A stretch of 64,000 bases of DNA, from the NCBI RefSeq assembly GCF_003334405.1, contig NZ_QOWM01000006.1, one strand, 5' to 3'. The first letter of the stretch is position 1. Each line of letters begins with the position of its first letter. The DNA comes from Escherichia coli. Its GTDB lineage: Bacteria; Pseudomonadota; Gammaproteobacteria; Enterobacterales; Enterobacteriaceae. This document shows, in pieces, positions 52,105-53,958 of the stretch. A model generated the notes under the pieces. The model was not told the DNA's origin, did no database searches, and saw only the letters and a list, made by a program, of their open reading frames with translations. The position numbers were made by a program, and so were the translations under genes.

Positions 52105-53958
52105 TTACCTTTCCAGTCTTCTTGCTCCACGTTCAGAGAGACGTTCGCATACTGCTGACCGTTGCTCGTTATTCAGCCTGACAGTATGGTTACTGTCGTT
52201 TAGACGTTGTGGGCGGCTCTCCTGAACTTTCTCCCGAAAAACCTGACGTTGTTCAGGTGATGCCGATTGAACACGCTGGCGGGCGTTATCACGTTGCTGT
52301 TGATTCAGTGGGCGCTGCTGTACTTTTTCCTTAAACACCTGGCGCTGCTCTGGTGATGCGGACTGAATACGCTCACGCGCTGCGTCTCTTCGCTGCTGGT
52401 TCTGCGGGTTAGTCTGCATTTTCTCGCGAACCGCCTGGCGCTGCTCAGGCGAGGCGGACTGAATGCGCTCACGCGCTGCCTCTCTTCGCTGCTGGATCTT
52501 CGGGTTAGTCTGCATTCTCTCGCGAACTGCCTGGCGCTGCTCAGGCGAGGCGGACTGATAACGCTGACGAGCGGCGTCCTTTTGTTGCTGGGTCAGTGGT
52601 TGGCGACGGCTGAAGTCGTGGAAGTCGTCATAGCTCCCATAGTGTTCAGCTTCATTAAACCGCTGTGCCGCTGCCTGACGTTGGGTATCTCGTGTAATGA
52701 CTGGTGCGGCGTGTGTTCGTTGCTGAAACTGATTTGCTGCCGCCTGACGCTGGCTGTCGCGCGTTGGGGCAGGTAATTGCGTGGCGCTCATTCCGCCGTT
52801 GACATCGGTTTGATGAAACCGCTTTGCCATATCCTGATCATGATAGGGCACACCATTACGGTAGTTTGGATTGTGCCGCCATGCCATATTCTTATCAGTA
52901 AGATGCTCACCGGTGATACGGTTGAAATTGTTGACGTCGATATTGATGTTGTCGCCGTTGTGTTGCCAGCCATTACCGTCACGATGACCGCCATCGTGGT
53001 GATGATAATCATCATTGTCATGATGATGATGGTCATGATCGTCGTCGTCCCAGTCGATGCTGCTGAATAGTGCGTACGTGGTAGCAACGCCCATGCTATA
53101 GCCGAATCCGCGTACAAAGCTGTCAACAAACGGTTCTCCGGCTGGTGGTGGCAGATAAACCGGCGGATACGCAGTATTGGCCCAGTTCCCGTAAACCACG
53201 GTTGGGTTGTAGTTGGGAATATAGACCACATCAGGATTGGCGGGCTCAATGGAAATGACGGTTGTTGCCGGCTCTGTAATGACGGGGTTGGCAGTTAAAA
53301 CTGTATTGGATGGTATGACGGGTGCCGTGACTGTCTGTTTTACCGGTACAGCTTTCTTCGTTGTGGTAATAACTTTCTGTTCGGTTGATGACTTCAGCGA
53401 GCCGGTTTGTTGCGCCAGTTGCCGCAATCGCTGTACCGAGTCCATCACGTCCTGCGGCTGGGCCAGAAAAGCATCGCCCAGGTTTTGCACCCATTGCGGG
53501 TTTTCGCCCATCAATGCCATCAATTGTGGAAAGGCCACCAGTGATTTAACGCTGGCGTCCCACGGCTGGTCAGATACCGCCTGAATAGCAGCATCGCCTT
53601 GTTTAAGTGGATTATCGTGCGACCATTGCACTGCTTGAGCAACGTTTGTCGGATAGGTTGATGCCATCAGCACCTGCGAAAGTAGGGCGTCGGGATACAG
53701 CGCGACGGGCGCGACCCATTGATCTATTTGTGCAGTGCTGAATGCGGATTTGACGACGGCGGGTGTTACGGGAGGTGCGGAAACCGTTGCAGGAAACGTA
53801 ACCGCGGCAGCGTCAGACACAGCCAGTTGTGTCGATTGCGGTTCCACAGGCGCTTCCACTGTGCGGCTTTTTATATATAGCCCGGTAGAGGCGGCACAAA
53901 GCCCGGCACTGCAAATTAGCGCCAGCACATGGGGTTTAAACGGCAAAGTCATTTTCAT
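52105..53958 (-). CDS. yacH: Uncharacterized secreted repeat protein YacH, 617 aa
   Basis: 617-aa ORF with N-terminal signal-like hydrophobic segment, an Asp/His-rich tract and C-terminal 32-aa tandem repeats (QSASPEQRQ...). Confidence 0.88.
   Translation of the reverse strand: MKMTLPFKPHVLALICSAGLCAASTGLYIKSRTVEAPVEPQSTQLAVSDAAAVTFPATVSAPPVTPAVVKSAFSTAQIDQWVAPVALYPDALLSQVLMASTYPTNVAQAVQWSHDNPLKQGDAAIQAVSDQPWDASVKSLVAFPQLMALMGENPQWVQNLGDAFLAQPQDVMDSVQRLRQLAQQTGSLKSSTEQKVITTTKKAVPVKQTVTAPVIPSNTVLTANPVITEPATTVISIEPANPDVVYIPNYNPTVVYGNWANTAYPPVYLPPPAGEPFVDSFVRGFGYSMGVATTYALFSSIDWDDDDHDHHHHDNDDYHHHDGGHRDGNGWQHNGDNINIDVNNFNRITGEHLTDKNMAWRHNPNYRNGVPYHDQDMAKRFHQTDVNGGMSATQLPAPTRDSQRQAAANQFQQRTHAAPVITRDTQRQAAAQRFNEAEHYGSYDDFHDFSRRQPLTQQQKDAARQRYQSASPEQRQAVRERMQTNPKIQQRREAARERIQSASPEQRQAVREKMQTNPQNQQRRDAARERIQSASPEQRQVFKEKVQQRPLNQQQRDNARQRVQSASPEQRQVFREKVQESRPQRLNDSNHTVRLNNEQRSAVCERLSERGARRLER
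52180..52570 (-). repeat. Four tandem 96-bp repeats inside yacH
   Basis: The motif cctggcgctgctc recurs at about 52338, 52434 and 52530 (degenerate copy near 52242); encodes four 32-aa units each containing QSASPEQRQ. Confidence 0.85.

Follow-up and report, generated by a model that had tools for sequence, protein, structure and literature searches.

What does YacH do, given that its product combines an exported-looking N terminus, an Asp/His-rich run and a tandem array of coding repeats? The gene itself is not new: yacH is a long-catalogued Escherichia coli K-12 gene of unestablished function. It was analyzed here in a 64,000-nucleotide stretch of E. coli DNA (the window). The coding sequence (52105..53958, minus strand) is an intact 617-aa open reading frame (ORF) plus stop codon, with an ATG start and no internal stops. 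Its placement between lpd (50577-52034, plus strand) and acnB (54160-56910, plus strand), as given in the original prediction, was confirmed from ORF coordinates. RefSeq records of identical and near-identical E. coli alleles carry the name 'yacH: DUF3300 domain-containing protein', and DUF3300 (PF11737) was the sole family matched by YacH in Pfam (E = 1.5e-78; model positions 2-227 of 227; residues 75-333). The ORF, the tract and the repeats that had first drawn attention to the locus all proved real. The lack of an established function was borne out by full-text literature searches on yacH, DUF3300 and DUF2950, which returned only regulon and high-throughput mentions and no published functional assignment for yacH.

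Domain layout and export of YacH

All segments of YacH described below are encoded on the minus strand. The N terminus (aa 1-29, MKMTLPFKPH followed by VLALICSAGLCAASTGLYI; 53872..53958) is a putative signal peptide or signal-anchor. It contains the only hydrophobic segment of the protein (residues 11-29, Kyte-Doolittle mean of 1.91 over 19 residues), and the AF2 model places a helix at aa 9-23. Across the DUF3300 family, 84 of 94 complete N termini show Lys or Arg ahead of a hydrophobic stretch; the uncharged run has a family median of 14 residues and AxA-like ends. The signal-like segment originally proposed stands, in that the family has Sec-type signal peptides. The Enterobacterales members have a run of 19-20 uncharged residues and no clear AxA site, so for YacH an uncleaved inner-membrane signal-anchor appears at least as likely as the secretion originally proposed, as judged by a crude heuristic only. 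YacH would face the periplasm. A predictor cited in PMC9600279 calls the protein 'extracellular', and some records label it 'outer membrane protein'. An outer-membrane β-barrel identity was rejected, as the AF2 model is helical with a few short strands and no barrel, and no outer-membrane-protein Pfam family was matched. A role in anti-phage defence was likewise discarded after PADLOC returned no family at E ≤ 1.

The N terminus is followed by linker 1 (aa 30-74; 53737..53871), which is rich in Ala, Pro, Val and Thr, poorly conserved (pLDDT ~50; dN/dS 0.15-0.69) and interrupted by indels between alleles. The conserved helical domain of DUF3300 (aa 75-190; 53389..53736) is modeled at pLDDT 95-98, with near-invariant columns across 104 family members and dN/dS of 0.012-0.032 within Escherichia. 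Linker 2 (aa 191-232; 53263..53388), rich in Thr, Val and Pro, is again poorly conserved, with low occupancy in the family alignment and dN/dS of 0.20-0.48. It leads into a conserved Pro/Tyr-rich β region (aa 233-303; 53050..53262; pLDDT up to 95; dN/dS 0.013-0.049), which ends in FSSIDW and has the family consensus IxIEPAxPxVVYVPxYNPxVVYGxW.YPxYPP. Beyond the His/Asp tract (aa 304-331), alignment of the 104 members showed that the conserved family core reaches past the end of the Pfam model. This additional motif (aa 332-385, NINIDVNNFN...WRHNPNYRNGVPYHD; 52804..52965; pLDDT up to 94; dN/dS 0.06-0.08) corresponds, at YacH residues 338-385, to the high-occupancy consensus vniNvNr...WxHxPxHRxGVPYRD.

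The C-terminal part of YacH is made up of helical units. Two degenerate 'TRDxQRQAAAxxF' units (aa 399-440; 52639..52764), recognized in the translation and modeled as helices 400-417 and 423-433, precede the four-unit array described below. The array is followed by a degenerate fifth (half-)unit and a conserved basic tail (aa 584-617, ending in RLNNEQRSAVCERLSERGARRLER; 52108..52209) that aligns with the NLEQRAAGREALSERHEFRRR tails of other Enterobacterales. The region from aa 456 to 617 is strongly basic, with a net charge of +17. Neither sequence nor fold searches returned a solved relative of YacH or DUF3300.

The immediate surroundings of the gene were also inspected. A simple consensus scan for promoters and terminators gave chance-level output and missed a hairpin in the spacer where yacH and lpd converge (52064..52093); folding this stretch separately gave -15.9 kcal/mol (z = -3.3). 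With an A-run and a T-run on either side, this hairpin is likely a bidirectional intrinsic terminator, as modeled by RNA folding. No Rfam match was obtained at the gathering threshold on either strand of 51800-54400. Searching for the CpxR box GTAAA-N5-GTAAA with up to two mismatches gave 51 matches against 45 expected, none of them convincing upstream of yacH.

Two length-variable modules

The repeat array consists of four tandem, in-register 96-bp units, each encoding 32 aa with an SPEQRQ motif (aa 456-583; 52210..52593); four C-terminal repeats had been predicted correctly, with the position (about 52180-52570) requiring adjustment. Each unit is modeled by AF2 as a helix-turn-helix hairpin around SASPEQRQ (pLDDT 81-90). 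Pairwise, the units share 19-24 of 32 residues and 59-81 of 96 nucleotides (61-84%), and the longest exact run common to units 1 and 2 is 30 nt. Tandem Repeats Finder reported a period of 96 with 2.5 copies (88% matches, score 384); the two units that diverge more were not taken in by its extension.

Copy number was surveyed in two systematic samples of 60 from about 5,420 complete E. coli genomes. Four-unit alleles accounted for 33 and 31 genomes (about 53%) and three-unit alleles for 25 and about 28 (about 44%); a single two-unit allele was sampled, and one five-unit allele is known (P0006), so that both of these lengths are rare. The variability proposed at the outset is thus borne out, with two, three, four and five units found across strains. 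The three-unit alleles differ in composition, being A-B-B' in L001 and A-A-B' in UTI89, from which at least two independent events follow. Ten K-12-like proteins that seemed to have three units in a regular-expression count turned out to carry point substitutions in the motif and no deletions. Representatives of the near-identical K-12-like clusters all have four units, except for one five-unit allele, and among the sampled genomes copy number looks lineage-structured. The stability within the K-12-like group means that the variation may be slow and neutral and not adaptive tuning. The present SPEQRQ array would have been built in Escherichia, and its length would shift in frame when the 96-bp units, with exact matches of up to 30 nt between them, recombine unequally or slip.

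The second module is the His/Asp tract, DDDDHDHHHHDNDDYHHHDGGHRDGNGW (aa 304-331; 52966..53049), a disordered acidic loop (pLDDT <50) encoded almost entirely by GAY and CAY codons. Its existence had been predicted correctly, at coordinates (52983-53079) that were off by about 20-30 nt. Among its first 22 residues, 18 are Asp or His, against a background of 6.6% (position-corrected binomial tail of 2e-15). When tract length was measured as the number of residues between the flanking motifs IDW and WQHNGDN, all 12 Enterobacterales orthologs examined had 25-45 aa, compared to 4-7 aa in 70 other loci; absence of the tract from orthologs, which together with an invariant repeat number would have counted against the original prediction, was not seen. 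The tract keeps its position from Hafnia and Rahnella to Escherichia. As a new finding from these alignments, the 4-7-residue loop is expanded in Enterobacterales only, where it would have grown within the core into the disordered His/Asp tract.

Within E. coli, the tract spans 15-42 aa by this measure. The 120 cluster representatives near K-12 comprise 27 variants by sequence or length (19-41 aa), and length differs even between near-identical alleles. The changes include 7-residue duplications (DNDDYHH or DDDDYHH, 21 nt) and single-His changes. The shortest form, DDDDHDHHHRDGNG in allele L008, has 15 aa between the flanking motifs and about four His residues. Since the run of GAY/CAY codons behaves as a codon microsatellite, replication slippage is the probable route by which tract length changes in frame. 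Only one out-of-frame event is known, an 8-bp deletion fixed in Salmonella: it lies within the tract and has turned yacH into a pseudogene in S. Typhimurium UK-1, 14028s, SL1344 and D23580 (PMC3391293; PMC10048834).

Selection, regulation and a lost partner

Comparing K-12 with UTI89, a cryptic-clade strain and E. albertii gave dN/dS values within Escherichia of 0.02-0.04 for the core, 0.07-0.15 for the repeat region and 0.15-0.7 for the linkers. The Escherichia YacH core is therefore under strong purifying selection. At least 80% of the gene is retained in one place in 5,370 of 5,426 E. coli genomes. Nucleotide identity of the alleles falls within the 90-95% band in 2,698 of the 5,426. Eight alleles that were fetched and translated were all intact, and every length change seen among them was a multiple of three. 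Single strains showed other states: an IS1 element interrupts the gene after codon 26 in one E. coli strain, and a strain bearing the E. coli label has an allele of only 68% identity, set between nearly identical flanks.

The original prediction had noted the setting of yacH between two loci of central metabolism. The position is as described; the conserved neighbour of the DUF3300 family is instead DUF2950 (PF11453), and it is missing in Escherichia. Of 82 loci, 68 have a DUF2950 gene with a secreted product directly downstream of the DUF3300 gene. Ten of these 68 come from Enterobacterales other than Escherichia, and in 7 of the ten the acnB/lpd setting is visibly shared. The DUF2950 product is soluble and combines two domains, one NTF2-like and the other resembling type IV pilin. 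No other recurrent neighbour of DUF3300 was found, the remainder being antisense ORFs of GC-rich genomes or synteny between close relatives. In the window, yacH is followed directly by the putative terminator and convergent lpd, in place of the downstream DUF2950 gene of the two-gene module. No DUF2950 sequence was detected by tblastn in the window and the intergenic gaps or by blastn in the 5,426 E. coli genomes. The gene is also absent from E. albertii, and no remnant was found in Escherichia yacH-lpd spacers. E. coli and E. albertii have lost the DUF2950 partner yet keep yacH, which is a new finding. The longer yacH-lpd spacer of B2 strains consists of REP-like sequence, and the E. albertii spacer has a different small ORF. 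Across the family, the C-terminal length of members with and without the partner showed no clear correlation. The family is large, with YacH relatives falling into 9,583 clusters at 50% identity (E ≤ 1e-3); published work on DUF3300/DUF2950 notes only co-localization, signal peptides and induction in symbiosis transcriptomes (PMC4653623).

Published expression data connect yacH to envelope stress. The gene is CpxR-regulated, with Cpx activation raising its expression, and a Δ-yacH strain outlives the wild type under protamine, which lowers yacH mRNA (PMC9600279). The Cpx data are partly contradictory, as protamine activates Cpx yet lowers yacH (PMC9600279). Expression is 2^-4.06 in Δ-rob (PMC7537768), ampicillin induces the yacH promoter (PMC8865558) and exposure of UTI89 to a cathelicidin peptide raises yacH expression (PMC6737244). 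In the literature found, no report linked yacH to metal regulation or a metal phenotype (Zur, Fur, NikR or CueR).

Candidate roles and likened systems

The reading that we favour, with moderate confidence, makes YacH a periplasmic protein of the envelope-stress response that is not an enzyme; its domains would follow one another like 'beads on a string', and two of its modules would be prone to slippage or recombination. This reading builds on what was directly observed here: the domain layout, the polymorphism, the pattern of selection, the loss of the partner and the lack of known homologues. The protein would run from a signal-anchor or signal peptide through a Pro/Ala/Thr-rich linker and a three-part core (aa 75-190, helical; aa 233-303, Pro/Tyr-rich; aa 332-385, with the NINVN...WxHNPxxRxGVPY motif) to a basic, Arg/Gln-rich array of 32-residue helix-turn-helix units. 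Selection acts on the core. Because this core lacks an enzyme-like set of invariant His, Cys or acidic residues, its role may be one of binding or scaffolding. YacH could form part of the response to envelope stress, in which Cpx and Rob as well as ampicillin and cationic peptides are involved. The basic array may contact anionic envelope material, the target being a guess, and the His/Asp loop may serve as a divalent-metal- or pH-sensitive acidic element. Changes in module length would tune YacH and not turn it on or off, and the Escherichia protein would have stayed functional despite the loss of its partner.

Alternatively, yacH could be functionless in Escherichia since the loss of DUF2950, with the length variation, indels and divergence reflecting neutral drift toward a pseudogene. 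The absence of DUF2950 throughout the surveyed E. coli genomes and E. albertii is consistent with this, as are the frameshifted yacH of several S. Typhimurium lineages, the IS1-interrupted allele and, for a core gene of E. coli, an unusually low identity between alleles. Deletion mutants are moreover viable and sometimes fitter (protamine survival; recombinant protein yield). Such decay is nevertheless unlikely: the low dN/dS of the core and of the repeats indicates strong purifying selection, nearly all E. coli genomes retain the gene, the translated alleles are intact with length changes in multiples of three, and expression is under Cpx and Rob regulation. Judged by composition alone, metal binding by the tract is plausible. 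The stronger proposal, in which the main job of YacH in Enterobacterales would be to bind, buffer or pass on Zn, Ni or Cu in the periplasm by means of the tract, as the His-rich loop of ZnuA or ZraP- and ZinT-type proteins do, we regard as improbable. It draws on the 9-18 His residues interleaved with Asp in a disordered exported loop and on the fixed position of the tract from Hafnia and Rahnella to Escherichia. A PDB sequence search with the tract returned only weak, non-significant matches, to His-tags and the ZnuA His-rich region (E = 6.7), a likeness of composition and not of homology. Metal binding by the tract cannot be the core function of the DUF3300 family, because the non-Enterobacterales relatives examined have only the 4-7-residue loop; tract length is also inconstant, down to the four or so His residues of L008, and no paper found ties yacH to the metal regulators or metal phenotypes.

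The presence of two regions of hypervariable length in a single exported protein also raises a contingency or antigenic-variation locus, whose repeats and tract would switch fast and vary a surface protein met by phages or the host. The 68%-identical allele between nearly identical flanks and the published 'extracellular' call fit this picture, which is very unlikely on other grounds. The 96-bp units are only 61-84% identical to one another, near-identical alleles share a constant copy number in a distribution that looks lineage-structured, dN/dS is well below 1 even in the repeats, and the AF2 model has no β-barrel or autotransporter-like element for surface display. Phase variation, recognized by a repeat unit not divisible by three or by a promoter repeat, is not indicated by 96-bp units and codon-sized tract repeats; with all E. 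coli units and variants in multiples of three, on/off switching does not follow. Least credible is the reading of the SPEQRQ units as LTXXQ-type modules, which would make YacH a CpxP/Spy/ZraP-like periplasmic chaperone or Cpx modulator and which we consider extremely unlikely. It appeals to the place of yacH in the Cpx regulon, to the predicted helical hairpins and to S-P-E-Q-R-Q at the helix start, which we take to resemble LTxxQ. Pfam LTXXQ (PF07813) was unmatched at E ≤ 10 with either the full protein or its C-terminal 218 aa, and the CpxP/Spy identity was rejected with no Pfam, NCBIfam or structural match. In the C-terminal Pfam scan, nothing beyond sub-threshold matches to DUF3106 and RskA_N was obtained (E = 0.05); the DUF3106 (PF11304) match (independent E of 0.05, score 14.5, over 1.5 units) lies below any sensible threshold.

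A bolder extension of the envelope-stress reading, which we hold to be decidedly doubtful, is that DUF3300 and DUF2950 form a widespread periplasmic two-protein system governing envelope contact with polycations or metals. Escherichia would have a single-protein version in which an expanded Arg-rich helical array and a His/Asp loop titratable by metal or pH replace the partner, and variation in unit number and tract length would set the susceptibility of a strain to cationic antimicrobial peptides.

What is new for yacH is the combination of an exported protein under purifying selection, two length-variable modules, a Cpx/Rob and cationic-peptide link and a lost partner. If unit number or tract length affects tolerance to peptides, metals or envelope stress, yacH would join tolA as a repeat-tuned envelope case; if the variation is neutral, it would be an ordinary low-complexity polymorphism of a minor envelope protein. 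DUF3300/DUF2950 is a very large uncharacterized family pair, and E. coli offers a natural 'partner-less' background for dissecting it.

Among known systems, the LTXXQ proteins CpxP, Spy and ZraP, and DUF3106, resemble YacH in their helical hairpins with an (S/T)-P-E-Q-type helix start, alongside the Cpx-regulon connection of yacH; they differ in that the YacH repeats terminate a much larger unrelated protein and have no LTXXQ or structural match. ZnuA, ZraP and ZinT contain His-rich periplasmic metal-binding loops and tails, and the YacH tract is similarly disordered, exported and dense in His and acidic residues. That likeness is compositional only, and the YacH tract sits within an unrelated fold. 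For E. coli tolA, in-frame tandem-repeat copy number tunes stress tolerance, with RecA-dependent contractions (PMC3477136). TolA and YacH are both envelope proteins, N-terminally anchored (for YacH, putatively), with low-complexity or helical repeats whose copy number varies between strains while the frame is kept; they have no sequence or demonstrated functional relation, and the yacH units are longer (96 bp), more diverged and confined to a narrow range of 2-5. The two-gene DUF3300/DUF2950 module of Proteobacteria is matched by YacH in its family export signal, helical domain, Pro/Tyr-rich region, WxHNPxxRxGVPY motif and basic tail, and in the location of the gene at the same acnB/lpd locus in other Enterobacterales. 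YacH departs from the module in the missing partner of E. coli and E. albertii, in the 25-45-residue insertion of Enterobacterales and in the SPEQRQ array that is Escherichia's own.

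The yacH locus and its reported regulation

The gene yacH is an intact open reading frame for a 617-residue product at window positions 52105–53958 (−), with lpd (50577–52034, +) on one side and acnB (54160–56910, +) on the other. This placement, part of the original prediction, agrees with RefSeq E. coli chromosomes, in which identical and near-identical copies are labelled 'yacH: DUF3300 domain-containing protein' and flanked by lpdA and acnB. yacH is an already catalogued gene and not itself new; the prediction was accurate, and those of its statements that were open to test were confirmed.

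Convergent yacH and lpd are separated by a likely terminator, a hairpin between an A-run and a T-run (52064–52093; −15.9 kcal/mol, z −3.3). Their spacer measures 70 bp in K-12 versus 241 bp in the phylogroup B2 strain UTI89 (L004:2359–2599) and in strain 401656 (L005:2383–2623); in both of the latter it contains REP-like palindromic sequence. In E. albertii, a small open reading frame with a signal peptide (MKAFLTTVVLTAAVFSGMAVAADP...) lies between the two genes (L013:7989–8261, −); similar DNA occupies the DUF2950–lpd interval of Pseudescherichia, Kluyvera and Phytobacter (loci L015, L019 and L020) and is absent from K-12. Genomic SELEX placed a binding peak of the sigma-28 (RpoF) holoenzyme in the divergent yacH–acnB spacer (53959–54159) (PMC5493296). 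A simple sigma-70 scan of this spacer returned a sole site, at chance level and just beyond the spacer (54182–54210), and Rfam searches of both strands of the yacH region gave no RNA family.

As predicted, no functional assignment for yacH was found in the published literature, where it is a listed y-ome gene (PMC12133099). It is among the experimentally confirmed CpxR-regulated genes; its mRNA is lowered by protamine in a partly CpxR-dependent manner, and a yacH deletion mutant outlives the wild type under protamine (PMC9600279). Earlier work, as cited in that paper, has cecropin A repressing yacH. In butanol-exposed rob mutant cells, yacH expression was 2^4.06-fold lower (PMC7537768). Its promoter is ampicillin-responsive (PMC8865558), and a cathelicidin peptide raised expression of the gene in UTI89 (PMC6737244).

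A conserved core and a hydrophobic N-terminus

The single Pfam match of YacH was DUF3300 (PF11737; E 1.5e-78, residues 75–333). NCBIfam and PADLOC profile searches gave no match, and sequence and profile searches of the PDB returned merely His-tag-like and low-complexity noise. Exhaustive phmmer searching collected 9,583 clusters (50% identity) at E ≤ 1e-3. An AlphaFold2 model built from 104 diverse family members (mean pLDDT 73.9) predicted an N-terminal helix (residues 9–23) followed by a disordered linker, a helical domain (75–184; pLDDT 95–98), short strands (194–301 and 338–359; pLDDT up to 95) and C-terminal helix-turn-helix hairpins (457–580; pLDDT 81–90). Alignment of the 104 members revealed three conserved blocks: the helical domain (75–190), a Pro/Tyr-rich block (233–303; IxIEPAxPxVVYVPxYNPxVVYGxW.YPxYPP...dW) and a block outside the Pfam model (338–385; vniNvN...WxHxPxHRxGVPYRD). 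Both linkers and most of the Arg/Gln/Gly-rich C-terminal part were unconserved. No invariant His, Cys, Asp or Glu constellation was present among these members, which suggests that YacH acts in binding or as a scaffold and is not an enzyme.

The predicted N-terminal hydrophobic segment was recovered as the only one in YacH (residues 11–29; Kyte–Doolittle mean 1.91). In 84 of 94 complete DUF3300 N-termini, K/R precedes a hydrophobic run with a median of 14 uncharged residues; many of these runs close with AxA-Q-like sites, as is typical for Sec signal peptides. In Enterobacterales (K-12, Hafnia and Rahnella), the run spans 19–20 residues with K/Q directly after, and by this heuristic the N-terminus looks more like an uncleaved signal-anchor.

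Two modules of variable length

The Asp/His-rich run noted earlier exists, although about 20–30 nt away from where it had been placed: DDDDHDHHHHDNDDYHHHDGGHRDGNGW covers residues 304–331 (window 52966–53049), modelled as disordered (pLDDT below 50). Asp or His make up 18 of its first 22 residues, compared to 6.6% elsewhere in YacH (corrected binomial tail 2e-15). With 82 loci projected onto K-12, we compared the length of the stretch bounded by the conserved ...DW and the NINVN motif. This stretch was 4–7 residues long in all 70 non-Enterobacterales proteins (GGGD, GNND, HDHD, NNHD and similar), versus 25–45 His- and Asp-rich residues in all 12 Enterobacterales orthologs (from Escherichia, Pseudescherichia, Citrobacter, Kluyvera, Enterobacter, Phytobacter, Pseudocitrobacter, Cedecea, Hafnia and Rahnella). 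Absence from orthologs, named in the original prediction as grounds against it, therefore does not hold within the order; across these loci the tract is an Enterobacterales-specific loop expansion and does not characterize the family as a whole. Within E. coli, 120 cluster representatives (at least 91% identity to K-12) carried the tract in at least 27 versions differing in sequence or length, with 19–41 residues from IDW to WQHNGDN; by the same measure, the shortest among the alleles seen has 15 residues (DDDDHDHHHRDGNG, genome locus L008; compare DDDDHDHHHHDDDDYHHDDDDYHHDDDDYHHHDGGHRDGNG in protein entry P0062). Among the changes are gains or losses of a single His and duplications of 21 nt. 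Since the tract is encoded by consecutive GAY/CAY codons, codon-wise slippage would be the natural mechanism. The tract is also a hotspot for inactivating events, as an 8-bp deletion within it frameshifts yacH in S. Typhimurium UK-1, 14028s, SL1344 and D23580 relative to LT2 (PMC3391293; also PMC10048834).

The four-unit C-terminal array was likewise borne out, with 32-residue units in register at residues 456–583 (window 52210–52593). Units share 19–24 of 32 residues and 59–81 of 96 nucleotides, units 1 and 2 having a 30-nt exact run in common; Tandem Repeats Finder reported only the 2.5 copies that are better conserved (period 96, 88% matches, score 384). The C-terminal tail is a degenerate fifth half-unit, and the array is preceded by two shorter 'RDxQRQAAA' units. 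Megablast with whole yacH found the gene in all 5,426 complete E. coli genomes (5,370 with at least 80% in one place). Most genomes gave two or three such places, probably off-register matches of tandem units at one locus, and 7 of 10,325 places fell on records typed as plasmids.

Among 60 whole-gene records sampled at even steps, 33 had four units, 25 had three, one had two and one was highly divergent; 60 records from a 596-nt C-terminal query gave 31 with four, about 28 with three and one unclassified partial match. Pooled, roughly 53% carry four units and 44% three. Eight alleles were fetched and translated: two units in 158274-3; three in EH41, AVS0155, UTI89 and 401656; and four in K-12, PapRG-04-4 and 01G17CRGN001. 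Five are present in P0006, a 648-aa allele from the protein collection, so that copy number does differ between strains, as anticipated, from two to five. Retained units differ among three-unit alleles (A-B-B' in EH41, A-A-B' in UTI89), which indicates at least two independent events. All observed length changes are in frame. Two further in-frame duplications lie outside the array, of 45 residues (APVITRDTQ...QQQKDA; P0001–P0003, 662 aa) and 17 residues (FKEKVQQRPLNQQQRDN; P0049, 634 aa), so the whole C-terminal half tolerates length change. K-12-like alleles are stable at four units, and the array therefore changes over lineages, not clones, while the His/Asp tract changes faster. An apparent three-unit set among K-12-like alleles was rejected as a regex artefact. 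Codon 604 (52147–52149) encodes Cys (SAVCERL) in the K-12-type allele of the window and in several K-12-like database entries, and Arg (SAVRERL) in each of the eight other Escherichia alleles that were taken from genomes.

Partner loss, selection and a proposed role

In metagenomic and genomic loci, DUF3300 genes are followed immediately, in the same orientation, by a DUF2950 (PF11453) gene. Of the 82 loci, 68 encode it according to an HMM built from downstream proteins, and about seven of the other 14 are cut by contig ends; no other conserved neighbour was found among the loci compared. In root-nodule bacteria the two domains are 'universally co-localized', with signal peptides, and induced in symbiosis transcriptomes (PMC4653623). 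DUF2950 directly follows yacH in 10/10 non-Escherichia Enterobacterales loci, and acnB and/or lpd flank the pair, E. coli-like, in seven (Pseudescherichia, Citrobacter, Kluyvera, Enterobacter, Phytobacter and Pseudocitrobacter). E. coli and E. albertii have lost this partner: tblastn found no remnant in their spacers, and sensitive blastn with the Pseudescherichia DUF2950 gene gave no match in the 5,426 E. coli genomes.

The analysis directly showed the architecture, the polymorphism, the pattern of selection and the loss of the partner. As to role, we lean, at somewhat better than even odds, toward a non-enzymatic envelope-stress protein that faces the periplasm and is probably tethered to the inner membrane; the DUF3300 core would be the part under selection and the two low-complexity modules would change length in frame via slippage or unequal recombination. 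Judging by composition and regulation only, the basic C-terminal array (region net charge +17) may contact anionic envelope material, the acidic His-rich loop may sense metal or pH, and module length may tune phenotype.

That partner-less yacH is a decaying orphan on its way to loss seems improbable. Nei–Gojobori dN/dS for K-12 versus UTI89, a cryptic-clade strain and E. albertii was 0.02–0.04 in the core, 0.07–0.15 in the repeats and 0.15–0.7 in the linkers, a pattern that argues against decay; yacH is still under selection in Escherichia. Its synonymous divergence is several-fold above that of flanking lpd/acnB (for example, 0.23 versus 0.06–0.07, K-12 versus UTI89), a contrast into which little can be read because these neighbours are highly expressed and codon-biased. 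A primarily metal-binding protein, the reading the His/Asp loop invites, is given the same low weight. We consider a contingency or antigenic locus quite unlikely, the length changes being in frame and the array stable among K-12-like alleles, and an LTXXQ-type chaperone, tested and left without support, is very unlikely.

Two alleles stood apart. E. coli AST85 (NZ_AP043644.1; L006:3001–4860) encodes a YacH 68% identical to K-12 with saturated synonymous sites, between lpd and acnB 100% and 99.7% identical in protein; in both length and divergence this YacH is like E. fergusonii B7LVX9 (Foldseek listing), and the case could be an allelic replacement or a mislabelled lineage. E. coli SW071611 (NZ_CM129855.1; L009:301–2931) has a yacH identical to that of K-12 except for an IS1A insertion following codon 26, a natural knockout.

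New here are the partner-less Escherichia DUF3300 variant with its own repeat array, the Enterobacterales-specific loop expansion and the quantified polymorphism; alone, the finding opens no long-standing question. The closest precedent for this polymorphism is tolA, whose in-frame repeat number also varies among E. coli strains, tunes detergent, osmolarity and phage tolerance, and contracts in a RecA-dependent manner (PMC3477136).
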